A stretch of DNA of 63,622 nt, counting the filler, from Asterionella formosa (taxonomy: Eukaryota), in assembly GCA_002256025.1 (NCBI GenBank). It is 27 parts of 27 records of this genome, joined end to end, with 100 filler letters (N's around TTAATTAATTAA, not from the genome) between each part and the next. Parts side by side here need not be neighbours in the genome. Positions count along the whole stretch, not along the records: positions 59,053 to 60,120 come from NKIB01004556.1; positions 60,221 to 61,288 come from NKIB01004557.1; 25 more parts are not named here. One strand, given 5' to 3'. The notes beneath the pieces were generated by a model. That model was given only the letters and a program-made list of their open reading frames with translations, was not told the origin of the DNA and ran no database searches. The stretch's first letter is position 1; each line of letters starts with the position of its first letter. This document shows positions 16,238-61,288 of the stretch, piece by piece. Both the position numbers and the translations under genes were made by a program.

Positions 16238-17272
16238 TAGTCAACCTAGTGGTATTGTTGCCCCCACCGCTTTTTGTGAAGCCCAGTATTTCGCTCACAA
16301 TAAAGCATATGTGTTAATAAATGTCACTTTTTTACTTGATATTCTGGAGTTTTCTGAATTCTTCCCCTGATACAACAGCTAAGGACAAATCCAAAAGTGA
16401 GAAAGGTTTCAACTTGGACACAATGAAATTTGGTCCAAAGGGAAAAACAAACATGACATGGCTTGATGTTTAATTGCTGCCAGGAACCCTCTGTCTCATA
16501 ACAGTTGCATCAAATTTCCGAACCCCAAGTGTATTTTTGGACAGATTTTAAAATTCATATGTAGACAACAGACCATTTTTCTACGAGAGGGTCAGCTTAC
16601 TCGGAAAAATGCGCTTTTTATTACTTATTTAGATGCGAGAATCTTGGAATCACCATTTAAAATATTAGCATCTAAATAAATTAATCGAAACCAATTTAAC
16701 ATTCTTTAATATATTGAGTACATCTACATATTGCCAAATGCTGTTTTACATTTGCCCGCCACTCTAATATTTGTGGAAAATGGAATAACACAAAATCCAC
16801 TATCATAATTACAATATCAGGAGAATAACAGTCATTCCATACACATTACGGTTACTACATTTACATTGACTGTACCACTGGATATTTCATGGCTCCAATG
16901 ATCAAAACAAGCATATCATCATCGTTTTCTTCCTTTGCATCATCGCCAGGTTGCGCAATCCACAATCAAAGTCAAGTTGCCATTGTTCTACTGTTATATC
17001 CTACTTTGTATGCATGCTTTATGTATGATGTTGCAAATATAGCAGTAACCTGGTAGGCTGTTGCATCAGGCATTGGTAATCAGCCACTGTGACCATGGTG
17101 TCTATAAATTTAAAATTATTAAGTAAATTTGCTTTATAGTATGCAATTGTTAAAGAACTCGACAATTGTAGAGGTTGTGAAGTCACACTTGGCTCCCCAG
17201 AGGGCCTTAGACCTGCTTGTTGCTTGTCTGCCTCACCACCTGGAACCCAAGGGACTACATAAACAAAGCAGG

Positions 17273-28326: not shown

Positions 28327-28852
28327 ATAATTACATTTACTAGCATGCTTGATTTTTTACATTAGCTACATTCATTGCTTGTGTTCACTTCATTTCCGGC
28401 ATGTTGACAGTATAGAATGGAAATACCGGTACCCATAAAATGCGATAGAGTCGTATTCCCGGTACCTGTTACCTGGTAGGGTACCTGGTATACCAGCAGG
28501 ATTACCACCAGAAGCTAAATGCATACCGGTATAATTAAGCAGAAGGAAAATACACGATGAAGCAAGCAGCAACGGTACCAGGTACCGTATGATCATTGTC
28601 GCTAGCTTGTGCACTGTACTACTGGTACCAGGTTGTTAACTACTATCGCTAGCTTCCACTACGGGTTTAATTAACTGGGAGTTTAATTTTTTACGACTTG
28701 GTACGTTCCCGGTAAATGTATACCGGTACGGCATAAAAATTATAATTTTGCGCCATGATTGCTTACCGGTACATGTAGAATTTGATAGACCGCAGGTACT
28801 GAAGTCCACGTTGTATATTTGTATGTAGATTATCGACTGTAGCTCTAACCCA

Positions 28853-30356
28853 ATGACCATGATGATGGTTCGTATAGTTGTCCTTCTCCTAGCGGTTGCA
28901 TTGGTTACGATCGCCCAAGACAGCGAGCAAACGTGCCTAGCCAATGGAGCTCCTTGTGGCTGTCGTGATGAGCACAAATCCTGTAAACATCGGAAAACGT
29001 TGGGTGAATGGTACGAGTGCTGACATTAAGCATAATATTTAGAGGCCTGCCTCTATTTGACAAAGTACAATAATTCACTTTTGTCTCATTTCCCGTGCAG
29101 TGAAAATAATGCCTCGTGGATGAATATTAATTGTCGCGCGAGCTGTAGGGTGTGTGATCCTAGTCAAGTTGATTTGGGCTTGCCCCAACAGGTTGACGCC
29201 AAGCTTAAAGCAGAAACAGAAGCGATCATGGCCAAGGCCAGAGCCTATGTTGAACGCATTGCTAATGATGAGTTTCTCCGACGAGCTTTACCAGCATGCA
29301 AGAATCTTCACGAGTCATGTGCGTTTTGGGCTATAACAGGAGAGGTGAGACTTTTCTTTGTTCATGCTTGTTCTCTCTGAGGATCACTTGTTGGCGACGG
29401 CTTACCTCCACTCGCTTGAATTGCATGCAGTGCACCAAAAATCCTGCCTACATGGAGCGAACCTGTGCTCCAGTATGTGAAAGCTGCGACCAGGTCACTG
29501 TCGAAACACGCTGCCCTATCGATCCCGATGCTCCAAATGCATGGGTCCCTGGGGATTTGGAGGAAATGTTTATCAACATCACGACTTTTCCTGAAAACCA
29601 AAAGTACAGCCCAAAAATACATTCCCGACCAACCATGGTGGAAGGCGATAGTATTTCCACTATTGACTACAAGATCGGTCCATGGGTTATTGTCTTGGAA
29701 AACTTTATAACTGACGAAGAATGTGACCGCTTAATTGAGTTGGGAATGGCGGCCGGCTATGAGCGTTCTGCCGATGTTGGGAAAATGAAGATTGATGGAA
29801 CTTTTGAGGCAGATCTAAATGATAGACGTACTTCAAAGAATGCGTGGTGTCAGAATGACTGTTATGATGATCCAATGGCCAAGAGCATCATATACCGGAT
29901 TGGAAATCTTACTGGTATCCCTGAAGAAAATTCTGAGTCCTTGCAGCTCTTGCAATACGAAGTTGGACAGTACTATAGAACCCACCATGATTATATTGAG
30001 CATCAGGTAACACGTCAACAAGGAGTCAGGTTATTGACTGTATTTCTGTACTTGAACGATGTTGAAGCTGGTGGGGGGACCAACTTCCCCATGTTGGATA
30101 TTACTGGTATGTTCATTACTTAATTACATCCTTTTCTGGACAAAATTTCTTATCCTTCCCTTCTTTCTATTTTGCAGTCATGCCAAAGAAGGGACGTGCT
30201 CTCATTTGGCCTTCAGTGAAAAACGAAAATCCAGATGAAAAGGATGGGAGAACAATACATCAAGCATTGAAGGTTGAGAATGGAATCAAATATGGAGCCA
30301 ATGCATGGCTTCATCAACGTGATTTCAAAGGGCCAAACAAAAATGGTTGCCAGTAG
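28853..30356 (+). CDS. ShKT-domain prolyl 4-hydroxylase (4 exons)
   Basis: Signal peptide; ShKT motifs (CRDEHKSC, CKNLHESCAFWA..GEC); RTSKNAW, LQLLQYEVGQYYRTHHDY, TVFLYLNDVEAGGGTNFP, TIHQA..KYGANAW; GT-AG introns. Confidence 0.9.
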
Positions 30357-31074
30357 ATCGACCATTGAATATCCCCTGTAGATATGCACAGCAATAAAAC
30401 AAGAATGCATTGCTATTATGGCCCATTCATCAGCTTGCAAGGGATTTGACAAAGCATTCCACTGACTCTCTGTTAGATTCTCATTATACTGCTGGCCAGA
30501 CTACTTTGGTGGACCTAGGGACTATCATGGGTTATTTGCATCATTCACGTGTCAATTCTTAGGAAACTTTGGTGTACTAGTTACAAGAAACTACATTCTC
30601 ATTTTCCAGGGTACCTGACTTTCGAAGTTGAAATGCTACCAACAAACTACTGATAAAAATAACATTGTCCAAGACTGCAGATGGAGTTCAAAGTTTCTGT
30701 CATTGCCATGGAAAAATTCATTGAAAATATTTTTAAATTTAAGACCAAAGTTCCTGCTGCTGTATATTCTTAATAGTCTACCCAAATATTCTGTGTTGAT
30801 TTCCTACTGATTCTAAAGGAACCACTAAAAAATATTCTGATTCTATGGAGTCTCCTTATTGCCATCATGTATCCTCCTAGTATTTGACTCATTCATAAAA
30901 TGGCTTGTTGTACTAGACTGCTCCCTGAATTAGAAATCTATTGACCCTTCCACTGTATCTGGTGTGAATGCGTGTATTTTGAATGTTAATTCTCTCCCCT
31001 CTAGTATTAGTCGATGCATACAAATGTATCTGTTTGTCTGCAGCAAAAATATGAAAGTTTGTGCAGGATGGTAA

Positions 31075-31152
31075 GGAGTGTGGGAGTCGAACCCAACAAT
31101 TGCTTCTAAAAAATTGCGGGAGTCGAACCTCACCACCACTAAGCCATTCCCT
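31075..31152 (-). ncRNA. tRNA-like module, copy 3 (internally deleted, with a second B-box)
   Basis: Reverse complement AGGGAATGGCTTAGTGGT-GGTGAGGTTCGACTCCCGCAATTTTTT matches copy 2 with the middle deleted. A second GGGTTCGACTCCC follows. Confidence 0.5.
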
Positions 31153-31518
31153 CGGTTTGTGAGATTAAATATTTGCATTTTAAATGGGATTCGCTGCAGA
31201 GCATGGTGATTCACAGCGCAGGGGTGTGATGTGAATCATAGACTGATCGGCTCACAGCGATTCATCCAACTTAGTTTAGAGTGCTCATAATAAATAAAAT
31301 AGATCAGACGCTATTTGCTACTAACTAAATTTAGCTTTACCTAAATTCGCCAAATAAAGAAGAATATCCTGAATCCATCACTTAAGTGTCGGATTCATTA
31401 GCTAAGACAAGACACTACCATTTCAACCAGAAGTTCCTTGAGACTTCAAGGAAGAGTTGCCAAAAAGGATAAATCAAGTTCTGATTCGGAATTGGAAGAA
31501 GATAGCTTCAACCTAAGC

Positions 31519-32420
31519 ATGTCCACACTTTCGACAGGTCCAAGCCAAAGCTGCAATCCATGTAAATTTGCCAGCTCAGGTAGCTCATAACAGTGTGCAA
31601 TTATAAACATTCTTGTACAACTTTCTCAAGCCCACCAAAGCATGAACGCTGAAGGTGGCATCAGCGTTTGATGAGTCTCTATGCCATATTGGAACGCCAC
31701 CCATCAACATGAGTGCATGCTTTCTCAAGCTTGTTTTCATGAGATGCACTGTAGATACCCGATAAACAGTATCCACAATTCGAAAAAACTTCGCCAGTAT
31801 GGATGGATAAATGCTCACTGTCAACAGCAACGTTGAAGTATTTAGTCAGCATGGTTTGGCAGCACAGCGTGATTTGCTGGCTACCCATTGTGAGACATCT
31901 AATGATTTACTCACTAATCTGTTCACCACGGCATATGAGACACTACAGGACCAGCCATTTCATCAGGACATTGCAGGACTGGAGAACAAGTACAATGATG
32001 GTAGATTGAATTTCGATGCAGATGCCCTTATGGAGTATGCAATAAATACCAACAGCGCAAGATGCACAGATTGTAGCCCCTACAGCATAAGTCAAGAAAC
32101 ACTCTCATGAGGATAAAGTTGCTACTGCGCTGCCCAAGCCATTCAAGAAGCAAGAAGAGATCTCTCCTGGCTGGCTCCAATAGTGGTAAATTTGCTTGGA
32201 AAGAGACGCCCCTAAAGGAATAAGGAGAGGCAAAAATCAAGAAATTTCAGGGTAAAACATACCATTTGGTGCCCTTGCTTATACTATTCACACCCCAGAT
32301 CAGTTTAAATTGGTTAGCAAGCTGAAAAAAGAACCGGTGAAGACGTCAAAGGCTCCACCCAATGTCGGAGCGTTCGTCAGATTTTATGAGGATGAAGAAA
32401 ATGAGGAATATGAAAGAGGC
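31519..32420 (+). pseudogene. Degenerate diatom copia (CoDi-like) gag
   Basis: FLKLVFMRCTVDTR*TVSTIRKNFASMDG*MLTVNSNVEVF...ETSNDLLTNLF..AYETLQDQPF resembles diatom copia Gag and carries many stops. Confidence 0.6.
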
Positions 32421-33404
32421 CAGAGACAGGGGATAATACGATGATAACATACTATCAATGTCATGTTCTACTGTCTCTGTGGGCCAATGAATTGGGTAAG
32501 TTTATTGGATTGGGATTTTTTTAACATGGTGGCCACAATCACCATTCCCGTGATCAGTACCATGTTGATCTTTTGGTTGCTGAAAAGTGAAACAAGCAAC
32601 AAAAGTCCAGCATTGGTACCCAATTTTATGTCAATTAAGAAAATTTATCACATAAGAGCTATCCAATAATCGCACTTGGGCCCAAATAATTGTATAGGTT
32701 ATCTCTTTCTTCCCATTGGGTACTTTGCTTGATGAATACCACATTGGTCAAGTTGCAATGTTGATCCAATTGTTCTGCTTTCTCAGGATGCTCTGGCTTG
32801 AGCAAACAAGTTTTCTTTCTGAATGCAGCTGTATTTGTTAGTGATCTCTGTGGATTTGGCAAGACAACTGTTTTTCGCTCCATTCTTGTTGGTCTCTTCT
32901 GGAATATCCATCAGTGAAATCTCCATATTGGATATTTAGGAGTCATAGGAGGACTTTGAATTTCACTCTTTTCAACATCCATGTTCTTCATTGGACACTC
33001 TGGTACTTTCATGGGGTCCATGTTTATGCTCTGACTGAGGCTGTCTGGAGACTTAAATGATCTCTTGGTACCTGATGTTTTCGATGTCGAAATGCATATG
33101 CATTGATTGCTAGTAAAAATTTAAACATTGCTTGGAAATATATATATAATACCTTTGCTGAATTGTTCTATTAAGGTCACCTTGATCGGATGATGCATGT
33201 GACAGATTGGATCATGCCTGCATACAAAGCAAAATTATTACATTCAAAACATGAAAAACAGCTGCAGATATGAGCATCTCAAAGTAGCTATCATGACTTT
33301 TTTAAGCTAAGTGCAATGCCTTTATGGGGTCACTTAACAAAAATACTTGAGCTAAAGCAATCCTGATGAAAGAAATAGCATTATAGCATTACAAGCATCA
33401 CCCT

Positions 33405-33989
33405 CTAGAATGTGGCGCTCGTCAAGACAGTCAAGACGTCTTGATCCCAGAACTCTCGGTAAGACATAATTAGGCCTGTCGACGCATCTCGGGCCAGGAC
33501 AACCTTGCCTGTCAGACTAACCTTAGGCTGAAAAGGAACGTTGAACACCAAATCCTCGTCAAACAAAAAGTAAATTTGTTCTTTTGAAACATTGACATCT
33601 CCGACCAATCGTACAGTTGACTTTTCTCCTCGAAATAGCTTTTGTGTTCCTTGGATCCACTTGTCTAATGCGTAAGTATCGATCTCATCTGTAAATGTTG
33701 ACGATTCATCGTAGATTTGTCGAGTTAGCTGACCTGTTGCCAGAAATTGTTTCTCAAGAATATCTTTCTTGACTATCTCTTTGAGTTTTTCATCGGGAAG
33801 ATTCACAAATTTTTCGTCAGCAGCGAAAACCGGATGCAAAGGGACCAATGATGTTGCTGCAATTGTAACAGTAGCAGAGACACCTTGCTTCCAAAACTGA
33901 GATCGCGACATCTCAGGAGCAAACCCAAGTGCTAGTTGGGCGGACAAAGAAGCAATGGCTACCACTCTCATGCTAGTGGACAGCATCAT
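33405..33989 (-). CDS. Plastid (probably thylakoid-lumen) SnoaL/DUF2358-like protein
   Basis: Signal peptide ending ALG-FAP, then SRSQFW, a hydrophobic stretch and VFA. Mature part contains QFLATGQLTRQIYDE..FTDEIDTY...SYREFWDQ. Confidence 0.75.
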   Translation of the reverse strand: MMLSTSMRVVAIASLSAQLALGFAPEMSRSQFWKQGVSATVTIAATSLVPLHPVFAADEKFVNLPDEKLKEIVKKDILEKQFLATGQLTRQIYDESSTFTDEIDTYALDKWIQGTQKLFRGEKSTVRLVGDVNVSKEQIYFLFDEDLVFNVPFQPKVSLTGKVVLARDASTGLIMSYREFWDQDVLTVLTSATF

Positions 33990-35278
33990 TTGTTTGAGGG
34001 AAAGCCAAGCGAGTGAGAAAGAATGTGGAGAATTAGTCGCATTTTAGGACGGTGAGATGTTGCGCTCTTATTTTAGTCTATCATGAACCGATTGACACCT
34101 GTTCTGTACGGTACATGACGGAATGCGCAACTGCGAAAGTGGCGAGGATGCATGATGGGAAGGAAGAAAACGACGTGGTATGGCTGCTCGTGATGATTAT
34201 TGGAACCGTTATATGTCCGGTTACATGCAACAACCGTAGAACGACAGATGCTCTTTTCGTATTAAAATTATCACATGTACTATTGACATGTTGCATTCTG
34301 TTTCCCGCAAATATTTGCTGAATGGCCGGCAAATATAAAACAGCATTTGGCGATATGTACATGAATCACGCTATCGATATACCGGTAATTAGTGATTACG
34401 AGTTTATGTACACTACCGGTATGTTATCGATAAATGTATGTTAAATTGGTTTCGAATACCGGTAATTTATTTTAAGTCTAAAATTTTAATCATTGATTAC
34501 GAGATTATAGTCACGTCTAAATAACTACCAGGTACCAGTAAATGTAATAAAAAACCCTTTTTTCGAGTAAACCGACCCTCACGTAGAATGATTCTAATTT
34601 TCCTACGTAATCCGTCCTAAAAATAAGCTGCTCGGCACTTGAGTCGCTGCAAATTGACGCAATTGTTTTCGCCCAGAGGTGGTAACTGGTCCTACTGGTA
34701 GTACGATCACCTCTGGCGGCGCACATGCTACGAATGAGTCTATGAGGTACCTGCTGCTCGTTGTCACTGTACCTTGTACATGGATACCAGGTACTGGTAC
34801 CGTACTCCGAACTCCGGAGTGCCAGCTTACCGGTACGTATGTTAGGTACCTGGTACTGGTAGGGTGTCAAAGGAGTCTAAGAAGAGCAAGGCACCACCAC
34901 AGCACGGGATCGCTCACCTGGTGGTCCTGGTTCGTGACCCGCAGGTATACTTCATAAAATCTGTTGTTTGGAGGTGGAACCAGGCAGGGGCGGCGCGCGG
35001 AGTCCCATATGTAGACATTCACAGCTGAATACTTTTATAACGCTTCCATCGAGGCTCGCAATTCCATTTTTCCCGTTAATAACTGTTTACTATACAACAA
35101 GCAACTGCCCATCTCGATCGCCTCATTTAGCCTAAGTGAAAGCCAATCGGTCTCGCAAAAACACCGCCAAAAGTGACAAGGAAACTCTCACTTTTTGTTC
35201 ATCCGTCAGAAAGCGTACAATCGCCTATTCGCTCGTCAACAATTTACATATTTTAATATCAATTAAATCAGCTTCACC

Positions 35279-37334
35279 ATGGCAAGAAACTTTCAAAGAA
35301 TTGTGTTCGTTGCTCTCTTCGTTGTGCAATGGACAACGGCGATAGGCAACAAGGAGTCTGCACCAGAAATTCCAGTTTCCTTGGTGTTTGAGCGACTGAG
35401 ATCGACCCCGTTACTTCGAAAAAGGGACCACGAAGATACTTCAAATAATAAAGCAGTAGAAAAAAGTGCATTACTGCGAAATAGCGAAGAGTCGAGATAT
35501 TTGGAATACGACCTTGTCATGAGCATGCCTTCTACTTCGCCCTCAGCTGACCCGTCACTGGTAAGTGTCACAATTGTATCACCGTGCTTCGAATGAATGG
35601 TTTGTGCATACATCTCATCGCCATTCCCTCTTTCTACAGCAACCATCACCTATTCCAACAATGGCTACAACGAATCCGCCTACCGTTGCTACTCCGGTCC
35701 CAACAGTGATTCCAACGAATCAGCCTACTCCGGCCCCTACGCCGAGCCCAACTATTTTTCCAACGAATCTGCCCATCGTTGTGTTTACTCCAGCCCCTAC
35801 ACCAAGCCCAACTGTATTTCCAACGAATTCACCATCTGAAGTACCTACTTCTATTCCGACATCTGGTCCAACGAATTTACCATCGGAAGTACCTACTGCT
35901 ATTCCAACAACAGATCCGACGAATTCACCAACGAATGGACCTACATTTAATCCAACAGTAGCTATATCCGAATTTCCTTCGGATTCACCTTCGCTGAGAC
36001 CAACCGTCAAACCTTCACCTAGACCTACTATTAGGCCAACAACTGTTTCGCCAACGGTTTCACCAACAAAGAAACCATCTCCCGCCCCCTCAACTGCATC
36101 TCCCACTTCGTCTCCAACAAAATCCCCTACATCAAAGCCAACAGCTTCACCAGTCACATCAGCGCCAACTATTTGTAATGGACTATCGCCTACCGAGCGA
36201 AGGGACTCTTTGTTTGCTATTGTTGAAACCATTTCACCGCCTGCTTTGGTCTTGGACAGGAATACAGACCAACACACAGCTTTTAGTTGGCTAGTGAACG
36301 TGGACCCACTGCAAGTTTGCCCTCAACAGATTTTGAATGTAGAGCAGCGTTACATTTTGTCGCTACTATATTACTCTACCAACGGCAACAGTTGGCTAGC
36401 ATGCAATGCACCCGATGCCCCTACTTTAGCTCCTTGTACCAACACTACCGCTTCTAGATATCTGAGCGGCGACAACGTCTGTAAATGGTTTGGAAGCACA
36501 TGCAATGCTGCAGGATTCTTGAGATCCCTCTCTATAGGTAGGTCCATTTAGCATACGAAGCTTCTTATGCACAAGCATTGTCCTCATTCATTTCTCTTTT
36601 TCCTTTCCCTGCCAGGTGATAACAATCTTGCCGGAAGCATTCCGAACGAGATAGTTTCTTTGTCGCTACTTGGAGATATAGACTTCGGTGGAAACTTGGA
36701 ACTCACAGGTACCATTCCAAAAGATATTGGAAATCTCACCGCATTGAAGGCAATAGTCATTGATAGTAATCATTTAACCGGAAGTGTCCCGGAGTCTTTA
36801 TACAAGGCTACAAAATTGATCACTGTTGACTTCGACACCAACAATATAACTGGAACTATTTCTTCGAACATCGGCAAGCTGACAGATCTGAACGTTTTCC
36901 AATTGAACGATAACGATATCAAAGGATCAATACCAACCGAGATCGGTCAGAATCTAGCTCTCAGTTTCCTTACTTTGGACGGCAACACCATCACTGGTAC
37001 CTTGCCCTCACAAATAGGTCTTACCGAACTAGAGGTCTTGACTCTTCACTATAACCAACTATCAGGGTCCCTTCCAACTCAGCTCGGCCAACTACAAAAA
37101 TCAAGTATTCTTTCATTATTTAACAATTCTTTCACTGGTACTATCCCTTCAGAAATCGGTCTTCTAACACAGCTTACGCGGCTATACTTTCATAATAACA
37201 AGTTCACTGGAACAATGCCACAAGAAATCTGCAACCTTCGAACTCTGGGGCTCAATCAGCTGTCGTCGGATTGTGCTGGCCCCAACCCAGCTGTCATATG
37301 TCCCCAGCCACTGTGTTGTACAGTGTGCTTTTAA
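35279..37334 (+). CDS. Secreted LRR protein with a mucin-like Pro/Thr/Ser stalk (3 exons)
   Basis: Signal peptide, PT repeats, QRYILSLLYYSTNG..W...CKWFG cap, LRRs and a DC...CCTVCF end. Introns at about 35561-35639 and 36538-36615. Confidence 0.9.
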
Positions 37335-37987
37335 ATGTTGCAGATCACAGGTGTTATTGTACTGTCTGAAAAAATTATTTGTATTTCTGAAAACCGTTGG
37401 CGAGAGGGCATCACAAGTCATAAAATAAAGTTCTATGATTCATAGAAAATGATGTGGACCCCATGAACTCTCAATCGGAACAAGTCAAAGATTTATTGAT
37501 TCTTAGATTGACACCAGCTTTGTGAGGGAGTAATTAGGGATCAGTACAGATCATATTTTATGATGTCTCAAATACAACATCTGCCATGTAAAATATAGGT
37601 CTGGATTCTAAAACATGCTTTCGCAATCTATCTCCGTGCTATAAAAAATAAAGCAGTAGTAGCCTAGGGTATTGGAACAACAGTAATTTGCTTCTTAAGA
37701 AATGTCCAGTCCAGAGCTTAAGTGGAAAAGGAATGAACCTTCTGAACTATGCATGATGTGGATGTGGGTGCAGTACTCGGGAGCACTGACAACCCGTCGT
37801 GTTGGTCACCTTCTACTATGACCCTTTCAAATCTCTCAGGTAAATCCTCTGACAAAACTCAGCAGTGACTTGGCCGACTATTCACCTTTCCCCCGAATGA
37901 GTTAAGAAAAGGATCCTACATAAGTCGAGTGCTAAAGTCTCCTTGCTTTGAAAACACTTTGATTAAGCACAATATCGCAATAACAAT

Positions 37988-39280
37988 TTACTCCCCTCCT
38001 AGAATTCGCAACAGAAAACCTCTGAGACCTTTTGTGTTTCGCTTCCCTAAATTGTCTTCCAATGGCGGTGGTTTCTTGAATCCCCTTGTGATAGCTACTC
38101 GGGTTTCCTCCAATGTTGCGTCGGGACCAAGTGGGCTCTTTGTTTGGAGCCGGCGATCTTTATAGAAAGTTGCAGCTCGTTTGTCGTCAGGAGGGCCATC
38201 TTTTGTTTGAAAATCACAAGCTAAAACAGTAATGCTCATTCCTTCCGTCATTGTTGGATCCACCAAAGCTCCAAAGATAATATTAGCGTTGTCATCGGCA
38301 TTTTCAAAAATAACTTCTGATGCTTCGTGGATCTCTTGAAGGCCCATGTCTGGTCCACCTACAATATTGAAGACGATTCGTCGAGCCTTGCGAATTGGAA
38401 AATCAAGAAGGGGGGATGAAATAGCTGCAATGGCGGCATCAGTTGCTCTCGTCTTTCCAACCCCGGTTCCAACTCCCATGAGGGCAGATCCCGCATCCTT
38501 CATCACTGTTCGGACATCAGCAAAATCTACATTAACAATACCAGTCTTGAGGATAATTTCAGAAATACCAACAACTCCCTGTCGAAGAATATCGTCAGCG
38601 ACCAAAAATGCGTCCGTAACTGGCGTGTTTTCTGGAACGATTTGCAGGAGCTTATCATTCGAAACAATAATGAGCGTATCGACGTGCTTGCGCAATTCGT
38701 CAATCGCCAGCTCTGCTTGCTGCTGTCGACGCTTGCCCTCGAACTGAAACGGCTTTGTAACCACTCCTACAGTCAAGCATCCACAGTCCCTCGAAATCTC
38801 AGCCAGCACAGGGGCAGCTCCCGATCCGGTTCCTCCGCCCATTCCTGCCGTGATGAATACCATATCACTGCCCTCGCAAAGTTTCTTCAACTCTTTGTAA
38901 TTCTCCTTGGCTGCCTCTGCACCTACCTTTGGATCACCTCCTGCCCCCAATCCTCTGGTCAGTTGTCTTCCAATGTTTAGCTTGTTTGTTGCCAAACTCT
39001 TGCTGAGAGCTTGCGCATCTGTATTGACAGCCCAGAAGCTGACTCCTTCAATTCCGGTCGAAATCATTCGATTGACTGCATTTCCACCTCCGCCTCCAAC
39101 GCCAATCACCTGGATTAAACATGGAGGAGCCAGGTTCGGAACTTCCTTGTTATTATCTTCCCTGGTCGAGTAAAGCTTCGGATAGTGATCGTTCAGCGGT
39201 GATCTTATGAAAAATGCCGACGTCGATGATGACAGTGATAGAAGCAGGCCTAAAATACAACGAGAAACAATCTGAATCAT
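37988..39280 (-). CDS. ftsZ: Plastid division protein FtsZ, nucleus-encoded
   Basis: IQVIGVGGGGGNAVNRM, GMGGGTGSG and NVDFADV motifs; bipartite presequence with an SSTSA-FF cleavage site. Confidence 0.97.
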   Translation of the reverse strand: MIQIVSRCILGLLLSLSSSTSAFFIRSPLNDHYPKLYSTREDNNKEVPNLAPPCLIQVIGVGGGGGNAVNRMISTGIEGVSFWAVNTDAQALSKSLATNKLNIGRQLTRGLGAGGDPKVGAEAAKENYKELKKLCEGSDMVFITAGMGGGTGSGAAPVLAEISRDCGCLTVGVVTKPFQFEGKRRQQQAELAIDELRKHVDTLIIVSNDKLLQIVPENTPVTDAFLVADDILRQGVVGISEIILKTGIVNVDFADVRTVMKDAGSALMGVGTGVGKTRATDAAIAAISSPLLDFPIRKARRIVFNIVGGPDMGLQEIHEASEVIFENADDNANIIFGALVDPTMTEGMSITVLACDFQTKDGPPDDKRAATFYKDRRLQTKSPLGPDATLEETRVAITRGFKKPPPLEDNLGKRNTKGLRGFLLRILGGE

Positions 39281-39637
39281 TGTCGCTGCTTACTATCTCC
39301 TGCAATTCGACTGACTTAAACCCTTTTTCGTTCCGACCTGACCGGTTGTAAGAAGATCAGGGGCGACAAACAGGCTGCCAGGAGAAAGCTACTTTCCAAA
39401 ATCAGTTCAATTAAAACGTCAAAGAATGCAAAATCTCCATTTTCCATGCAAGAGCGCAACAACAACAATGCACGGTACCCCTGTTACATGGTACCTTGTA
39501 CGTACCTGGTACCACGTGGTACCTGGTAACAATATTTGCATGCTGGGTTTTATTACCTGATTGAAATCTATTTTGTAACATCGTACGTACCTTGTACAAA
39601 TATGTTTTACTGTGTTCGTTAGTTACTACATTAACTG

Positions 39638-39698
39638 GTACCACGTACCACGTACCACGTACCACGTACCACGTACCACGTACCACGTACCACGTACC
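39638..39698. repeat. (GTACCAC)n heptamer array, about 8 copies
   Basis: Directly visible between the divergent ftsZ and MOB1 genes. Confidence 0.95.
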
Positions 39699-40172
39699 AG
39701 GTCCCAGTAACGCCAGGTTGTGTGCCCTTGGAAAACACGCACCTCGGCCGGTCGTGAACGCAGCCTCACCTCAGTAAGATTGTTGCACCTGGTACATACC
39801 AGGATCATGGTATTTTTTGCATTACGACAGCAACCTGGTAAAGATTCATGTCCATAATTGTATATGTACATGTAAACTCTAGCAGTACTACCGGTACTCT
39901 ACTTCACATGGAAATACAGCATAATACCGGTACCAGGTACCGGAATATCAATTTACGAACAAAGATGATAAATAGAAACGGGCTACTACGTCACTCATGA
40001 ATGGGTCGGCGCGGCTCGTTGAAACATAGGCACACGACGCACGACACGCACACCCCGCCGACCAACAACACAAAATGGCTTAAAGAAAAAGCAGCCAATC
40101 GTCTCGTCGTCAACGGACCGATATGGCAATCATAATCGAAGGCTTAGCTTGTTTCACACAGTATTGACTTTC

Positions 40173-41013
40173 ATGTCCTCCAAAATGCAGTCATCCTCAG
40201 GAACGTTTCAGCCCTTGAGGCATCGGAGCGGAACGATGAGAGATAGATTGCATGCATACACGAAGCGAACGCTTGGAGCTGGAGGGTCTATCAACGAAGC
40301 AGTACGTGCGAATTTTCTAGCGCGGTCGTTTCGTGGGTTTGCGCGTCCACTAACTTTTGTTTTCTTCGTCAGGTCGCCTTGCCTCCTGGAGAGTCATGTG
40401 CTGGTTGGGTCGCTGTGCATGCCATAGACTTTTACAATGATGTGTCGACTATCTGGGCTGTCATGGCTAGCGATCCATATCTGGCCAGTTTCAGACCCGG
40501 CGAAGGTTTCCCGAGTGGTGTTGAATATAGGTGGTCGGATGGAGGCGAGGCTGTTTCTGTAAGCGCTCCTGTGTACATTGAAAAGGTTCTTGGCTGGATC
40601 GGTAAGCTCAAAACTGCGCCAGCATTAGTTCGAGTTGCCCCGACTTTCTCAACTCTATTTTGTCACTGACTGCCCTTGACTCTCGTATTGTAGCCGACCA
40701 AATGAATGACCCCAACAAGTTTCCCGATGACGAAGATGACGAAGTATCTCTACGAGTTTTTCAAACACCCCAATTCGCGGCTCTATGCGGTCAAATTTTC
40801 AGGCGCTGCTTTCGCGTGTATGGTATTATTTATTCTAGTTTCTTCGGGACCCTGGAAGCATTGGATATGGCCCCGCATCTGAACACATGCTTCAAGCACT
40901 TTTTGTTTTTTTGCACAGAGTTCGGGCTCTTACCAGAAAGAGAGATGGAGCCTCTTGAAGTTTTGGTGAAACCTATACGAAAGCAATATCACGCTGCCAA
41001 GCAAGGCAAGTGA
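40173..41013 (+). CDS. MOB1: MOB1/phocein-family kinase activator (3 exons)
   Basis: TLGAGGSINEA|VALPPGE...WVAVHAIDFYN, EYRWSDG, SAPVYI, FPDD, IFRRCFRVYG, HLNTCFKHF..F..EFGL. The start codon is uncertain. Confidence 0.88.
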
Positions 41014-43511
41014 GATGACCTGTCATGTTCGTTCCCTGCGATCCATCGAAATTGAGACTCGGGAACATACATTGGACAACGATCTGTAATTGAATCTATC
41101 TGAGCGGATCATGAGAAGTTATCTCACCTTAGTCTATTGGTAGTTTCTTCTCGCTTTCATATCATGATGGTGGTTCTGAAAGTTAGACTATAGGAATCAT
41201 GTTGTACACGCGCGAACAAATACCGGCATTCAGAGAGGAGCGACTAGCAAATAAGTAGACGATAGTCTGTAACAGTCTGAGATGTGAAGTTACATCACAT
41301 ATGCAGACAGGTCATGAAACGTACTGCTAATGATACATTCCACTCAACGATTTTATTCAGCTTCAATCATGAATCACCTCATCATGGCTTCTTCCTCATC
41401 TCCTAGTGTGCAAATTATCATGTCACGCCTGCTCAAGGATGTCAACTTAAACAAAACCCCGTCATGACAGGCTAAAGTGACAAGCAAGATTACAATGGGT
41501 TACACATGGAGCATTTGTCAATATTGATTGTCCAATTCCTTTGTCTCATGCTTCTCATCTTCACCCTCATTCATAACAGGTTACAGCCCAAGCCAACCTC
41601 AATTGCAACCATCATCACCACATTTGCTTTTGCATTGTCGCGTTTATTTCATCACCTGATCAACGTACTGTTGTATACACAGTTTGTTACTACATGATAT
41701 CGTGAGAAAACAAGTGGCTTTATTGCATTTCATGAAGCGGAGCGACATTTTCTAATTCTCATCATTGACCACATGGTCATTCAGTGAGCATCCACATATT
41801 AATCTCCCTATCATTATATGTTCATAACTGTTCCTCGTTAGCCTAAGGGCCGTTCTTATCATTTTTTTGTGTATTGCGGAATTTGAAAATGTATCAGCAA
41901 TAATGGCAACTCGATTTGATCTGAATTTTATTCATTCCAAAAGTGACACTGTATCACTAATTTGTGATCACAGTGTATCATGAAGTAACACAAATCTTCA
42001 ACAGTGACTGGCCGGCAAAGATCATGAGTATATAATCCTGCAAATTGATGCAAAACTTGAGCAATAATAATCTTGTTGAGGGCACAATATCTCAAAATGG
42101 AAAAAAATTCCTCAAATGAATAATTTTGTACTGAGTTTCATGTTCACACTAACTGTCGTAATTCGTATATCTATGGAATCTTGATTAGGTCATTTGCATT
42201 ATAATATAGAGGACATAAATATAGACATTCAACATTACACTGCTTGTCCTTTCCATGAATAGTCATGAATTCCCTGACTGATGGTTTGTGCATTTTCGGA
42301 AACTTAAATGCAAAATTTGGAGTCATTCTTTCAGCCAGGAGTTGCTTGATGGAGGGACAGCGTCCAAGAGTGAGGTTTTCGCCACCCTGGACTTTATTTT
42401 CTTTCCTCGTGTCTTCCCAGGCACAAGTGCGATTAATAGTCTAGCTAGTTTTAACATTCTATAAAATTTTATTTAACCCGCCCCCTCAGCTGGCTGGTAC
42501 AGCACAGCTTGCTCCCCCAGGCAATCCCAAGCGCTTGTCTCCTTGGCACAATCGTGTGACCCTTGTCTCATTTCATAAATGCCCATCAACCTACCCTGGC
42601 CTCATCTACCCTTCACTGGGCCACACAAAAATTCGCAATTCTGCAAATTAAGAGTTCATGGTTTTCCAGGTCCCTACATGCACAGGAAACAAAAGTTTCA
42701 TGTATTGGCAATTTTTGGTTTGTTTAAAACCGGTTTTCTTCCTCCAAATCCAGCCAGGCATATTTCGTATTGGGTGTCACAACATTTTCCAACACAAAGT
42801 ATCAGTCTATTTCATTGTATTGGCAAAAGCACGGATTCGCAATCCGAAGAACAAAGTTAGCCAATAGCTACAAGGTCAACCTACAGCCATCGCGATTCAT
42901 CTCCTTTTGTTTTATGTGATCATAGATTGGGTTATATGCAGGTTCTGTTGTCAGGGGACTGTATTCTGCTTTGAAATACTAGATCATTGTAAAGTCGTTT
43001 TTCACTATTCTGACAGTATTGAATAAATCGTGAAATGCCGATGTAGGCGACACATGTAGGATATTCTCCGAAACCGTCGTATGTTAGGGGAAGGGGTCTG
43101 CCATGGTGGGAAGGAGGTGCATTTTACCAGAGCGCAACCTACCAGGTAGACTCAACTGTAGACTCCTGGTACACTGTAATTGGTACCAGTAGTACCTGTA
43201 GTTAGTAACTTAGTACATGGTACCGATATGCTGTAGTTTCGCATTCCACGTCTGAGGAATTATGCATCTTGTATTGGCTTCCATTACAAGGTATTTTCGT
43301 TTCCTGTGCATTGTAAACTGCCGTCATCACCAACACAACGCGACTAAAGTGGCATAGAAATGTACCGTATGACTATTTATTTATGCTGTACATACAAATG
43401 GTTATACCAGGTAGCCTATCGTAGCCCTCCCCCATCAAGGAGGAGTACTGGTACCGGTATTACGAACGTACCCGAAAATAAATCAACTCTCAGCGCAACC
43501 TTTTATGGCCA

Positions 43512-43762
43512 TACATATAGTCGTAGCTGTGTACTGCACTGGTAGTTAACTAGCCCCTTCGACAAAGCTCGCGATGTACATATACCGGTACTTGAGTACA
43601 GGGTAGACTGGGTACCTGGTACCAGGTACCAGTACATATAGTCGTAGCTTTGTTGTGCACCGGCACCTTCGACAAAAAAGCTATGTAGCGATGTACCGGT
43701 ACTCGTTTAGACTGGGTACCTGGTACCAGGTACCTGGCACATAAAGTCGTCGCTATGTAGTG
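43512..43762. repeat. Imperfect ~105-120-bp tandem repeat (about 2.2 copies) rich in GGTACC
   Basis: ACATATAGTCGTAGCT...CCTTCGACAAA...GCGATGTAC...TAGACTGGGTACCTGGTACCAGGTACC is repeated. Confidence 0.8.
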
Positions 43763-50776: not shown

Positions 50777-51622
50777 NNNNNNNNNNNNNNNNNNNNNNNN
50801 NNNNNNNNNNNNNNNNNNNNTTAATTAATTAANNNNNNNNNNNNNNNNNNNNNNNNNNNNNNNNNNNNNNNNNNNNGTTGGAATTGAAAGCTGCAGAGAT
50901 CTTGTGAATGATTTGAACTTGGCACTGAACGCAGCCTTTGAATCGTATGAGAAGTAGGACACCAACCTTCTTCGGCGTGCTGCATGGCTGGTGGAAGTTG
51001 TCTCGTGGTTAAATTCGTCTGAAGCCGATAACAGGGTTGTGAAAACTCTGAACGATCGGGATAGCTGGATTTCTTCTCGTTTTCCCCTTGCAGGCAGGAA
51101 AATACTTGCCAAACTACAAGTAAAGGAGTACCGGTATTATAATTTCTTGTCCGAGAATGCAGACTACAAGGCGCTGAACTCTGCAGTAGTATGTTACGCC
51201 AAAATATGGTCACACGGTATGTAGGCACATTTTCCCTCAAAAATGGAAATCGTATCCTTCTGATGTTCCTGGTACCTGGTACCTGGTAGTCAAATTATTA
51301 GTCCTCAGCATTTTCACCATAAAAAAATAATTTTACTCTCACAGAATGTTATACTACGACCTGGTACCAGGTACCGATGTCCGGGGACCTTAATTCAGAA
51401 AACTAAAATACCAGGGGTACCTATCCTAGAGGCGCGAGTAAAGGTTGACCGAACTAGTGGCGGTGGGGTACCAGGTACCAGGTACCGGTAGACTACTCAT
51501 ACCAAATACCGGTATGGTACCAGCCGAACTTCATGAAGGTGAATCTTACGAAATAATAAAAATAAAAATAAAAAACGAGGACAGTAGCTTCGAACTCCGC
51601 GCCTGTGAATTAAAAGTAAATT

Positions 51623-54380: not shown

Positions 54381-55031
54381 CTGGTAAGTCCATCTTTTCT
54401 TCTAGTGCTACCTATCTCTAGCCAGGCTTTTGCGGCCGGGATTTGTCGGGTCACTAGCATAGTGGCATAACGGGGTGGTAAATGGACAATATTTCGCACT
54501 GTAATGTATTCAGTATATTGACCATAAAGGGAGTTTCCGGCTGCATCAGACATGGGGCCTATGAACTCCCCATTTTCGTCAGAGTTCGGCTCCCAATTTG
54601 CTAGTGCTTCATCCATAGTTTGGAGGGTAGGAGCATACACCGAGCAAACCAGCAACAGCAAATACCTCAGGAGCAATGTGCACCAAGGGTATCTGGTTTG
54701 CAGTGATGTCTCCAAGGATTCCGAATAGTTTGTTATCCCAAGGGGAGGATTCGGTGAAGGATCCTGGGTAGCAGAAGATACGATGCACACAGGCGATGTT
54801 TACCATGTCATTCATGCGAAGTGTGACAGCGAAAGCTTGATGTGTGGTTTCACCGCCACTAACTATCCTGTTCTCCATTTGTTTGGCATTGAGCTGGTTA
54901 TGTATGGTAGATTCGTAACTATCACAAAAATAGTCAAAAAAGGGGCTACGAAGCTTTTCTAAAAATCTACGATACATAACTGCAGTTTTTCTCCAGAAGT
55001 TAACTCCTGACGTTATGGGGTACATGGCCAT
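54381..55031 (-). mobile_element. Degenerate ORF1/gag of a DIRS/Ngaro-like element
   Basis: IACVHRIFCYPG...SPWDNKLFGILGDI, then a frameshift, then IGPMSDA..TEYITVRNIVHLPPRY..AWLEI. Recognised from memory as resembling ORF1 of diatom YR retroelements. Confidence 0.5.
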
Positions 55032-56577: not shown

Positions 56578-57884
56578 CCTGTCTTTTTCATGTAGTCCCT
56601 ACTAGGGTTCTGGGGGNNNNNNNNNNNNNNNNNNNNNNNNNNNNNNNNNNNNNNNNNNNNTTAATTAATTAANNNNNNNNNNNNNNNNNNNNNNNNNNNN
56701 NNNNNNNNNNNNNNNNGTGTTGCTTGTATGCCCATGGTAGATCTTGTTTCTACTTCCTCAGAGCGTCTAATTGAGTCTATTGAATCTGATAGACTTGATA
56801 TAAAATCTCCCCCTCCTTCCAAAGCAAAAGCAAAATTTCAATTAAAGGCAACTCCAGACATGGTTGCCAATCTGGAAGAAGCAGTCCATGAATTGTCACC
56901 AAAGAGTTCCGAAATTGTAGGAGTGATTGGGAAAGTAAATAAAGAACAGGTCAAGGAGGAAAATGATTTATCCCATTTATCCAGCAGTAACAAGTTGGAA
57001 TTATTGAAAGAGGACAAGGTCACCAGTCTGGATGTAGTTCATGGGTGCATTTGGTGGCATATCGTTGTCTTTCTGATGTAGTCTAAAATCTCGAGGAAAG
57101 TGCCGAGTTTTCCATAAAATCATCGCTGGTTCTATATGATTCCGAGATTTCTTTGAAGTTTCAAATGATGTTTTGTTAAACAAGCCAGACTTTGGGACCA
57201 CATAGAATTTGTTGAGAACAAAATCCAGGACACTGTCATCTAGTCTCCTCTTCTCCTCGCCTTTGTCATCATGATCAAAGTATCTGACCAGTAAGAGTCG
57301 TTCCTTACTCTTCTGTTGTCTCTTGAACAGACATGAAAAACTCCATAGAAACAGGTTTTTCCTGATTGAAAAATCTGCGATTGGATTCCCCTTCACAACA
57401 AAGATCATTCCATTCCTTGTAGCACTTGGAACATTTGCCATTCCAGATAACAAGTGATATATTGCACTATAGATAGCTTGCAAATGTCAAGTTGTCAAGA
57501 AAAACGTGACTGTAACAGAACAAGGAAGCAGAAAGGGATAATGGTCTGTCAACTATAGGATTAGACAGTGGGCGAGTGTTGGATTGGAAGCGATGCAGCA
57601 CCGACATATTCAGTAATATACATTAGATTGGTAGCGCAAAGCTACAGTTTCATAGTAAAAGCTTAGTAATAGGTACAGTTTCACTGTAGCCACATCATAT
57701 TCCAACCGGGTATTGAACCGGGTATTGAGACAAGGGGAAGAAGGGAATGCTGGCTGGTAGGGCAAACCTACAGTTTCACAGTACNNNNNNNNNNNNNNNN
57801 NNNNNNNNNNNNNNNNNNNNNNNNNNNNTTAATTAATTAANNNNNNNNNNNNNNNNNNNNNNNNNNNNNNNNNNNNNNNNNNNN

Positions 57885-58951
57885 CCACTGCCATGACCCA
57901 GTACTGATTGCCAACAGCAAATTTCGCGTAGGGTCCGCTGATGTCCACAAACAGTCTCTCTCCAGGTACCGTCGATTTTTCTTGCGTTGTTTTTGGGACG
58001 GCTCGTGCTTTAGCTTTCGCTGCCGCACAGCCTGCGCACACTGTCATGATGCCGCTCAACTTCCATCCAAATAATTTTGCCGTATCGTGCAAACATTTCT
58101 CGCCCACATGACCAAGCATCGCATGCGCTTCATTGATATCGACAATCACATAATTATTTTCAAACTCACCATTTTGATTATTCCATTTGTTCTTTCCTTT
58201 GTTCGTTTTCTTTGCTTCAACTTTCGTCCAATCGTTTTCGTTGTAGTCGTCGATCGATTGTTGTGTCGCGTTCTCTTGTAGTTGATCGACTTCCATCACC
58301 GTTTGCTTGATGATCGGATTACCTTCGACATGATACATTGCTCCGAGCTTTCGAGTTTTATCTCTTTTGCAGGTTAGAAAACCGCTCTTGTTTCGTATCG
58401 TCATCCTATCGTCCTCGAAGATCACTTGATTACCCTTGTCGATCATTCTAGAGACACTGATGATGTTCTGCTTGAACTCCGGTGCATAAAGCACATCGGT
58501 GAGTTTCAAGCGTTTTCCTTCGTCCGTAGTCGTCAGGGTTACAGTACCAGAGACAGTTGATACTATCTCAGTTCCATTCCCTACCACGACCGTTTCACTC
58601 ACTTGTTTCTTGTCTTCCATCATGCGCACGTCTGTGCAGATGTGAACAGTAGCACCGCTGTCTAACAACCAGCGATTTCTGACGTCACGAGCGAGGTTGA
58701 CTTCCTCGTTGTAACTAATTTCGACGCACGTGCTGGCGACGAACATTCCTTGCTGCTGGGTAGATGTAGTCGTGTTGTTCTCTTCGTTTCTATTATTCTT
58801 AGATGCACTGTTACTAGTGCACTCTCTTGCGTAGTGTCCCATGCGTTGGCACTTGAAACACTTGATCGTTTTCCTCTTTTCTTTCTGCTCAGGAGTGAGC
58901 TCCTTCTTTTCGGCACTATTGCCCTTGCTGCGACATTCAGCCGCCTTGTGG
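57885..58951 (-). mobile_element. Ty1/copia gag-pol fragment (zinc knuckle, protease, pre-integrase, integrase start)
   Basis: CFKCQRMGHYAREC, WLLDSGATVH, HAMLGH..CAGC..KA, PGERLFVDISGP. Confidence 0.95.
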
Positions 58952-59052: not shown

Positions 59053-59350
59053 TTGCCTTCCAGTGGCATACCGGTAGTAGGACTGAAGCGCGTCCAGAAA
59101 GATACGCTCCTTTTCGGCTACTGTGAGACGAATGAGTTCCCCACTTTCCGGATCGACGACACAGTATTCCTCGTCAGGAATGCATTCTTCTTCCTGCAAG
59201 TTACCGGTAGTCTCAAAGAATCGTCCAGACTTGGCGTCGTAAGCGATTTCTCTCGTTCCGCTCGTAATGGTGATCTTTTCGTCGCTTCCTTCTTCGGCCA
59301 TTAAAAGTGGACCAGCAACGGCCACACGACCAGCTGTTGTCGTTGTCTTC
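59053..59350 (-). pseudogene. PGRL1: PGRL1-like gene fragment, copy A
   Basis: CIPDEEYC...RLTVAEKERIFLDALQSYY..ATGRQ. It carries two 6-bp TACCGGTA-forming segments, and no signal peptide is visible upstream. Confidence 0.65.
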
Positions 59351-59378
59351 CTTAAAGTTCGATGATCTTAAATTCATT

Positions 59379-60014
59379 TACCGGTACCGGTACCGGTACC
59401 GGTACCGGTACTGTCCCGCTGTAGTAGCAGCAGTCATAGACATACCGGTATGGTGTTCTATTGCTTGCTTATTACCGGTACCGCTTTTCAGTTTCACGAT
59501 CATACAATCCTAAAACTAGCTACCGTATGATGATTTACTATGGTGTGATATTGCTTGCTTATTACTCCGACTACCACTTTTCAGATTTACGATCATACGA
59601 TCCTAAAACTATGATGACTTACTGTCCCACAAAATTTGCAACAATCATGAACATATGGTGTTCTATTTGTTTTTAGTTTTTCGATCATACGATCCTAAAA
59701 CTATGATGATTTACTGTCCCACTAAATTTGCAACAGTCATGAAAATATGGTGTTCTATTTGTTTTTAGTTTTTCGATCATACGATCCTAAAACTATGATG
59801 ATTTACTGTCCCACTGCAGTAGCAACAGTCCTGAACATATGGTGTTCTGTACCTGGTACCTGGTGCCAGTAAAGTACCTGGTACCTGGTACCCGAATACC
59901 GGTTGCGTACCTGTAGGTAAAACCGTCCTTCCCCGGTCAGCCAACCCAGCAGCTGCAGCAGCAGCAGCTGCAGTACCAGGTACCAGGTACCAGGTACCAG
60001 GTACCAGGTACCAG
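59379..60014. repeat. ~90-bp tandem repeat (about 4.5 copies) bracketed by (TACCGG)5 and (GTACCAG)6 arrays
   Basis: CGATCATACGATCCTAAAACTATGATGATTTACTGTCCCAC...ATATGGTGTTCTA repeats; microsatellites at 59379-59410 and 59973-60014. Confidence 0.9.
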
Positions 60015-60469
60015 CAGCAGACAATGGTGGACTCGGAGTACCGGTAAGTTGTTGGTCGTCAAGGGACGAATTCCCCTGAATTCGCTCTTAACTCTTTTTT
60101 GCACAACATTCGCACTTGAANNNNNNNNNNNNNNNNNNNNNNNNNNNNNNNNNNNNNNNNNNNNTTAATTAATTAANNNNNNNNNNNNNNNNNNNNNNNN
60201 NNNNNNNNNNNNNNNNNNNNACCAGGTACCTGGTCGTAGAGACTGCCTGCGAGTAATCTTGAGTTCGATTTGCCCCTTGCAGGTTGACCGAACGAGTGAC
60301 GCCCGGGCGCTGCGAGAAGGTCAACCTGCGAGGGCCTCCCAAGCCTCGAACTCGAACACTACATTTCGAGTAGGCGGACTCCTCCCGAGTACCGGTAGGG
60401 TCTTAACTAGGCAAATCTCAAACTAGATATCGGCGCGCTTTTTGCCACTACGTTGCCGTTTCAGCTGAA

Positions 60470-60661
60470 ATTGAAAACTATTTTTGATAGTTTGTACGTT
60501 AGATGCGAACTAGCCAATTGCCCTTCATATGAAACTCAAGGCTGGTTGCATAAAAAAATTATCATATTGAAAACTATTTTAGATAGTTTGTACGTTAGAT
60601 GCGAACTAGCCAATTGCCCTTCATATGAAACTCAAGGCTGGTTGCATAAAAAAATTATCAT
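60470..60661. repeat. 96-bp near-perfect tandem duplication
   Basis: ATTGAAAACTATTTT.GATAGTTTGTACG...AAAAAATTATCAT occurs twice. Confidence 0.92.
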
Positions 60662-61074
60662 AGTAGCCCACGTAGAACTGGTACAAAATATTATCCTTAT
60701 CTCTATAGGTTTAAGGAATATCACGCCAATTTGTTCGCTTCAATCACCTCACCATGTTGCTCAATATCGCCGCCGTTACTTGGGCTAAAGTGACTCCCCG
60801 AAGGCTTTTAGTTGCGTTCTTCTAGTCATGAGTGGAACGCTTTTGGGGAATCACTTTTCACGTGATAACAAAAAAGTTGTAGCAATATCAGTTATGGCTG
60901 CTATCAGCGACCCTGCCATTCTTGGTATTTGGTTGCCGGTCAATCAATTCAGGGAATATCACCAGGAAAGTAATCTCTTGGCGATAATATAAAATTTAAT
61001 ACTAATAAATTGATAAGGTATCTAAATAAGGTGTTTACAAATCTATCTTTGGAAGCAAATGAGGTCGAGATTTC

Positions 61075-61288
61075 TAGACAACCATGTCAGATCCGTTCCA
61101 TTGCAAATCTTCCTTCAATAGGTCAAACTCGTCATCCTTGAGCTTGCCTTCCAGTGGCATAGTAGTACTGAAGCGCTTCCGGAAAGATACGCTCCTTTTC
61201 GGCTACTGTGAGACGAATGAGTTCCCCACTTTCCGGATCGACGACACAGTATTCCTCGTCAGGAATGCATTCTTCTTCCTGCAAGTTA
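61075..61288 (-). pseudogene. PGRL1: PGRL1-like gene fragment, copy B (frameshifted, truncated)
   Basis: Nearly identical to 59053-59203. After a frameshift it continues as LKDDEFDLLKEDLQWNGSDMVV*. Confidence 0.7.

Follow-up and report, generated by a model that had tools for sequence, protein, structure and literature searches.

TA-duplicating insertions of CCGG and CC(A/T)GG in Asterionella formosa: possible excision scars of a TA-targeting DNA transposon

In a 63,622-base stretch of the genome of the diatom Asterionella formosa (assembly GCA_002256025.1), hereafter the window, two short words, the octamer TACCGGTA and the 9-mer TACCWGGTA (W being A or T), are far more frequent than chance predicts. 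The octamer arises by insertion: five clean comparisons (59069, 59202, 59443, 34457 and, in contigs of other runs, 28424) set TA against TA-CCGG-TA, the filled site carrying a duplicated TA and the empty site a single one, as expected of Tc1/mariner scars. The 7-base form, TA-CC(A/T)GG-TA, shares this anatomy. The reading we favour, at about even confidence, is that the words are excision scars of a TA-targeting cut-and-paste DNA transposon of the Tc1/mariner type. A sequence-only reading of two of the contigs had already taken the words for TA-duplicating insertions, which is borne out here, and the pattern is far stronger than that region alone displayed.

Word abundance and insertion at TA

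The window comprises 27 separate contigs, 25 of about 1.07 kb and two of 17.1 kb, from a very fragmented assembly, with 100-base spacers of N around TTAATTAATTAA between them. Chance expectation was taken from 100 dinucleotide shuffles of the window (about 61 kb of real sequence). The octamer occupies 46 sites against a mean of 0.43 expected (largest value in any shuffle, 4), and TACCWGGTA 53 sites against 0.27 (largest, 2); together they are spread over 12 of the 27 contigs, unrelated to one another, with ten octamers on the contig at 59053-60120 alone. When all TA-flanked cores of one to seven letters were scored, the only outliers were CCGG (90-fold) and CCAGG/CCTGG (105-fold), followed in the ranking by CCACG, which stems from one microsatellite (39640-39700), and by CCAG/CTGG (11-fold). 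Other G+C palindromes between TAs (TAGGCCTA, TAGCGCTA and TACGCGTA) have no site in the window. At its centre the 9-mer has A or T in 53 sites and C or G (TACCSGGTA) in two. About one third of the window's CCGG, and likewise of its CCWGG, sits inside the words, whose density of about 1.6 per kb amounts to about 1% of the sampled DNA. Perfect octamers (46) are as many as copies with one mismatch (44, about 12 of them expected by chance), so the population must be young; 19 of the 44 are TACCAGTA or TACTGGTA, the forms into which a transition at the CpG within CCGG turns the octamer.

The clearest evidence for insertion comes from a PGRL1-like gene of which two partial copies, A and B, lie in the window. 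The 83-residue fragment of copy A was searched against 1.84 billion representative proteins, and both copies were aligned with 21 of the 167 database relatives found. For comparison at the DNA level we used the four closest (L001, L061, L066 and L080) among 80 metagenome loci. Because the window is made of separate joined contigs, the position of the two copies relative to each other is not fixed. The features concerned are:

59053..59301, minus strand: PGRL1-like copy A, first 83 codons, running off the contig start (open reading frame; 167 database proteins at E<=0.001)
61144..61288, minus strand: PGRL1-like copy B, a paralogue or allele (alignment to copy A and L001)
59069..59076, unstranded: TACCGGTA, derived 6-base insertion at TA, adding RY to copy A (absent from copy B and relatives)
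59202..59209, unstranded: TACCGGTA, derived 6-base insertion at TA, adding TG within GRFFET-NL (protein and DNA comparison)
61160..61161, unstranded: empty TA in copy B, homologous to 59069-59076 (alignment)
61287..61288, unstranded: TA ending the contig of copy B, homologous to the first TA of 59202-59209 (alignment)

In the alignment of copy A (59053-59209) with copy B (61144-61288) there is a single six-column gap, whose context is CAGTGGCA-TA-CCGG-TA-GTAG in copy A and CAGTGGCA-TA-GTAG in copy B, that is, CATA-CCGGTA-GTAG against CATAGTAG. The difference of CCGG plus a second TA at 59069-59076 versus 61160-61161, the second octamer at 59202-59209 and the end of copy B's contig on that same TA (61288) are thus all as the sequence-only reading had described them. 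In the protein, neither copy B nor any of the three full-length PGRL1-type proteins spanning this stretch (P0116, P0118 and P0145) has the RY encoded by the first insert, and the DNA of all four metagenome loci has a single TA there. The TG encoded by the second insert is missing from 20 of the 21 aligned homologues; copy A and P0001, a protein from another record with 96% identity, are the only sequences in which it interrupts the GRFFET-NL motif, which is nearly invariant elsewhere. At this second site L001, the only one of the four loci to reach it, has a single TA (GAGAC-TA-ACTTG). Since outgroup proteins and loci have the short form, the long form is derived at both 59069 and 59202.

Gaps aside, copy A and L001 share about 99% of their bases; over 324 columns they are separated by three substitutions and three indels. 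Gains of CCGGTA in copy A account for two of these indels; the third, a six-base GTGGCC (59317-59322) just upstream of the start codon of copy A, is neither TA-anchored nor one of the words, so some six-base indels at this locus fall outside the word class. The frame of copy B is broken by the loss of two bases (AT) just after GGAAGGCAA (61144-61152), which are present in all four loci; copy B may be a pseudogene or carry an assembly error. The break of its contig at a word had been pointed out earlier. Such breaks are not general: word fragments stand at 4 of 54 contig ends against a background of 5.6%, which is no enrichment. At 61288 the contig most probably breaks because the near-identical copies A and B diverge there.

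Three further observations concern this gene and its contigs. P0001 (94 residues) lacks the 18 residues ALQSYYRYATGRQ... after IFLD, by in-frame deletion or as a splice variant. P0002 has a predicted N-terminal extension with LPGT...GTWY, the peptide signature of translated TACCAGGTACC words, and the region upstream of its gene, judged from this peptide, probably has the words too. The contig of copy B holds a 96-base tandem duplication at 60470-60662 (98% identity).

The contig of copy A continues, upstream of the gene, into a tandem repeat whose units can be compared with one another. The words on the two contigs, with this repeat, are:

59379..59410, unstranded: (TACCGG)5-TA array, about 70 bases upstream of the copy A start codon (the L001 contig begins just past the array)
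59409..59852, plus strand: tandem repeat of about 92 bases, five units, the second and fifth partial (internal paralogue comparison)
59443..59450, unstranded: TACCGGTA in unit 1 only (ACA-TA-CCGG-TA-TGG against ACA/AAA-TA-TGG in units 3, 4 and 5)
59473..59480, unstranded: TACCGGTA within a 23-base block of units 1 and 2, a block missing from units 3 and 4 (unit alignment)
59517..59527, unstranded: composite TA-GC-TA-CCG-TA in unit 1, with nine extra bases (AAAC-TA-TGATGA in units 2, 3 and 4)
59850..59890 (59850-59858 and 59875-59890), unstranded: TACCTGG units (word scan)
59974..60010, unstranded: (TACCAGG)5-TA array, inverted relative to the TACCTGG units (word scan)
60039..60046, unstranded: single TACCGGTA (word scan)
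60390..60397, unstranded: single TACCGGTA on the contig of copy B (word scan)

The inserts that had been placed at about 59443 and about 59516 were recovered at 59443-59450 and 59517-59527, and the majority of tandem units polarises both as gains in unit 1. With the two sites polarised by outgroups, the derived long form that Tc1/mariner scars call for is therefore found at four sites. The converse, in which the long form came first and the short forms arose by deletion between the TAs, had been named among the outcomes that would overturn the reading of the words as insertions, and we regard it as extremely improbable. At 28424 and 43611 the direction is not fixed, and a two-base microhomology could mediate loss; at 59069 and 59202 the converse is refuted, as the outgroups lack both PGRL1-like inserts, and each of the two inserts of unit 1 is missing from three of four tandem units.

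Three more cases lie elsewhere in the window, two of them from a comparison of positions 26609-43762 with contigs of four other public runs from four studies (X1, X3, X7 and X9):

34457..34464, unstranded: TACCGGTA in one of two copies of a dispersed repeat (its counterpart, 16682-16683, is a lone TA)
28424..28431, unstranded: TACCGGTA, six bases of which are missing from contigs of three of the four public runs (cross-run contigs)
43613..43628, unstranded: TA-CCTGG-TA-CCAGG-TA, one 7-base unit of which (placed at 43611) is missing from contigs of all four runs (high-depth repeat region)

The word-bearing copy of the dispersed repeat also has gains of 18 and 52 bases, containing TACTGGTACCTGGTA and two TACCGGTA. 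The variant at 28424 has a depth of 70 of 91 in X1, 11.4 of 55.7 in X7, 13.8 of 33.6 in X9 and 0 in X3. Among the cross-run differences listed (12 of 68 indels and 24 of 1336 loose ends), the site at 28698-28699 shows three coexisting forms, read as GAC-TA-CG, CCGG-bearing and partly deleted, and none shows a TA occupied by an element. Because depth is raised in these bins, such variants may be paralogues and not alleles. Raised contig depth at word clusters was set aside as evidence for repeats, as word-rich contigs match any word-rich stretch.

The same contigs bear on whether the words are an artefact of sequencing or assembly, a suspicion that the very fragmented assembly, with most contigs at about 1.07 kb, invites but that we find hardly credible. 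Contigs of X1 reproduce 28601-29541, 34615-39347 and 39713-41942 together with their words, at 0-2 differing letters, which means that the words do not belong to one assembly alone; contigs of the four runs reproduce word-bearing stretches, JGI and ENA metagenome loci of close relatives have words, and P0001 carries the TG insert.

Origin of the words

How could such scars come about? In the proposed mechanism, the element would insert at TA and duplicate it. At excision the non-transferred strand would be cut a few letters inside the ends CC(A)GG...CC(T)GG, so that each flank keeps a short overhang. End-joining would then yield CCGG from two letters per end, and CCAGG or CCTGG where longer overhangs, of five letters, pair around an A-A mismatch at the centre, which is resolved to A or T. 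The alternative products found at the centre of the 9-mer, A or T in 53 sites and C or G in two, fit such a mismatch and not random filler, which supports the scar reading; the parallel that had been drawn to the CAG/CTG scars of Sleeping Beauty gains support from the same count. Each scar would offer two new TA targets, and nearby re-insertion would build arrays such as (TACCGG)5 and (TACCAGG)5, as well as mixed ones; slippage could afterwards lengthen the homogeneous arrays. Since cut-and-paste transposition with end-joined donor sites adds no copies, scars could come to outnumber elements by far even if only a few very active copies were at work.

The arrangement of the words is where slippage has to be weighed as an origin in its own right. 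The 99 units (46 CCGG, 29 CCAGG and 24 CCTGG) form 77 chains, of which 64 are single, eight double and three triple, and two have five units; unit types are mixed in 8 of the 13 arrays, and words cluster in 500-base bins (variance/mean 2.0 and 2.9). On a purely microsatellite account, the words would have seeded (TACCGG)n and (TACCWGG)n arrays or be left over from them, and would spread by slippage, unequal exchange or conversion. Homogeneous arrays at 59379-59410 and 59974-60010, the (GTACCAC)n array at 39640-39700 and the gain or loss of a 7-base unit at 43611 are what it would lead one to expect. Against it, the many single chains stand in unrelated contexts, most arrays are mixed, and a bare TA is ancestral at four sites, with no CCGG to slip on; the words are thus not, as a rule, new copies laid down beside old ones. 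Slippage may lengthen arrays but cannot start them, as the ancestral sites are bare TA, and we consider this account very unlikely. The heptamer array itself consists of TA-CCACG-TA units, one letter off TA-CCAGG-TA, and looks like a mutated unit amplified by slippage.

Words avoid coding sequence. Stop-free frames of at least 100 codons make up 52% of the window, yet they hold only 7 of the 46 octamers and 12 of the 53 9-mers; among frames with homologues or Pfam matches, the PGRL1-like one alone has words, both of the in-frame 6-base type, and no frame with homologues has a 7-base unit. Deleting each word chain never merged two frames into a long one, and in the window no gene was seen broken by a 7-base unit. 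The distribution could be taken to mean that the words are selected binding sites near promoters, with half-sites TACC and GGTA separated by zero or one letter. Words are palindromic and form intergenic clusters near the starts of genes, as at 39503-39939 upstream of FtsZ and ahead of PGRL1-like copy A. But selection for such putative sites accounts neither for the TA-duplicating origin nor for copies in coding sequence, presence or absence between tandem units, or array growth, and we hold it to be very doubtful indeed.

Several results weigh against the scar reading. The two scar lengths require two cleavage offsets or two element families, and TACCATGGTA, the 3+3 product expected if offsets of two and three were independent, has no site in the window. 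One-sided scars are not enriched there either (TACCTA, 20 sites against 18.4 expected; TACCATA, 10 against 6.5). The base preceding the TA is G in 49% of word flanks and in 27% of all TAs, which may reflect a target preference or decayed neighbouring units. Pairwise comparison of the four related loci over about 5 kb, at 97.5-99.8% identity, brought no new CCGGTA or CCWGGTA indel; it gave ordinary indels, one TA-GC-TA gain and one difference between TACCGGTA and TACCGTA. Neither an element nor a transposase came to light. TA-flanked inverted repeats of at least 13 bases in the window were only word arrays and one 13-base pair (54901-54976), and none of at least 12 bases was found in the four loci; the search for TA-flanked elements with terminal inverted repeats, on which the earlier prediction had counted, thus gave no element. 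No transposase family was recognised in the 59 window frames scanned (14 plus 45 of the 72 stop-free frames of at least 100 codons), where the only domains of transposable-element type are those of a copia-type retroelement, or in the 13 of 20 frames scanned in the four loci. Natural excisions in rice, as far as they are laid out in the part of PMC4423477 used here, are few and messy (94 events, 8 perfect), and the scars here are uniform. Of the original proposal of transposon footprints, then, the insertion anatomy and the derived long form stand, while the very active element with CC...GG termini has not materialised. The sample behind the element and transposase searches, 61 kb of the window and 11.6 kb of the four loci, is far too small to rule out a transposase.

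Two leads in the search came to nothing. A joint from 39707 to 41844, which skips 2136 bases, has word-rich filler and a side of only 20 bases, was considered as an element; because the skipped stretch holds a Mob1-family host gene, it is treated as a repeat-driven mis-join. Among viral contigs, the 18-letter pattern TACCAGGTACCWGGTACC matched one stretch and gave no lead.

What would the words be if no element stands behind them? An enzyme such as a domesticated transposase, or a nuclease to which CCGG and CCWGG look the same, could make two-base staggered breaks at TA which a fixed four- or five-letter filler seals, so that the 6- or 7-base unit itself spreads. Such direct micro-insertion is a possibility we take seriously while thinking it unlikely. 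It would sit well with the empty element and transposase searches in the window and the four loci, with the striking uniformity of the products (three forms make up all 99 units, one-sided scars are not enriched and 3+3 scars are absent) and with the interchangeable behaviour of CCGG and CCWGG units in shared arrays (39925-39939 and 51469-51490). Flipping out of the central base lets restriction enzymes of the CCGG/CCNGG group recognise both motifs. We know of no micro-insertion process of this sort, however; no candidate enzyme was seen, the source of the CCGG letters is left unexplained, and the scar model predicts every feature too and has direct precedent. The full claim, that the 6- and 7-letter units come from an enzyme which cuts DNA at TA and closes the break with CCGG or CC(A/T)GG, with no conventional transposon involved, strikes us as distinctly improbable. 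If true, it would amount to self-seeding palindrome writing in a eukaryotic genome, which makes its own targets, seeds microsatellites and adds codons.

A further type of gain stands beside the words. TAGCTA has 22 sites in the window against 9.5 expected, and a 4-base TA-GC-TA gain at a TA was seen twice, between L080 and L066 and at 59517-59522 in the window; these gains may be a second, rarer scar type.

Gene content and other features of the window

The genes of the window include FtsZ with both FtsZ domains, leucine-rich repeat proteins, a ubiquitin-conjugating enzyme, Mob1 and domains of copia-type retroelements, a set that, by homology, points to a photosynthetic eukaryote; a cluster look-up yielded no protein names. 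The atlas cluster closest to the FtsZ protein is made up mostly of Bacillariophyta, a lead towards a diatom. A 10-kb piece finds matches in public runs whose labels read freshwater, lake-water or algae metagenome. Fragments of copia-type retrotransposons lie at 8139-9179 and 57829-58842 (RVT_2, retroviral SH3-like and Pol beta-barrel domains). The contig at 1-1070 has 60% G+C, against 37-50% elsewhere, and a ThiF-family frame, and may belong to a different organism that was sampled along with it. At 31066-31113 lies a tRNA-like piece of about 50 bases, with a GGGAGTCGAACC motif that occurs twice nearby; in each of the four runs its contig depth is very high and loose ends flank it on either side, and it is SINE-like (short interspersed element).

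Known systems and consequences

Finally, we would like to place the words of A. formosa into the context of known TA-targeting elements and over-represented palindromes. The element Minos leaves four terminal letters and a TA duplication, a six-base gain like TA-CCGG-TA, although its letters differ. More generally, Tc1/mariner scars hold the first or last two to four transposon nucleotides between the TAs, according to the passages of PMC6943129 drawn on here, which give TACAGTA or TACTGTA as the excision footprint of Sleeping Beauty. The likeness, on the strength of the same passages (PMC6943129), lies in TA on both sides, terminal letters between them and two products that differ only in a central A or T; the counterpart of this pair in the window is TACCAGGTA and TACCTGGTA. 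Sleeping Beauty differs in its three-letter core and in that its scars come from assays, whereas the natural scars described here have a five-letter core and an equally common CCGG. The 5' inverted repeat of Mos1 reads TA-CCAGGT in the oligonucleotide table of PMC2642840 and so opens with the same letters as the 7-base unit, and its 5' break lies two or three nucleotides inside the element in the portion of that paper considered. However, the 3' end of Mos1 given there is TCAGGT and not CCAGGT, and the 3+3 product is absent from the window.

In rice, excisions were likewise deduced from related genomes, with activity near genes and not in coding sequence, in the account taken from PMC4423477; but there they mostly left deletions or filler and were fewer than insertions, whereas here uniform scars outnumber visible elements.

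The octamer also shares with HIP-like sequences the over-representation of an eight-letter palindrome. On our reading of that family, HIP-like palindromes arise within existing sequence and not by insertion, which is not what is seen for the words of the window, six-base gains at TA. The likeness to HIP1 of cyanobacteria is that of a palindrome vastly over-represented genome-wide, as the excerpt of PMC4390886 has it; HIP1 differs in being bacterial and is not described in that excerpt as a TA-duplicating insertion, while insertion is directly visible for the words here.

The type of scar is textbook; what departs from the textbook are the letters, the spectrum of two lengths, the density, the building of arrays and the in-frame gain of codons in a conserved protein. 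Such a density of scars is rarely if ever reported, and in open PubMed Central papers and bioRxiv we found no description of these words or of a comparable density of uniform scars. Between copy A and the near-identical L001, word gains are about as frequent as substitutions (two against three in 324 columns). If the words are excision scars, they would outnumber any visible element by far, and excision would be a leading source of indels in this alga. It would show how hexamer and heptamer microsatellites are born, and it would supply conserved proteins with in-frame insertions of two residues. Should there be no element at all, the process would be one that has yet to be described. The scar reading would also point to an exceptionally active TA-targeting transposase in a diatom, a group in which genetic tools are scarce.

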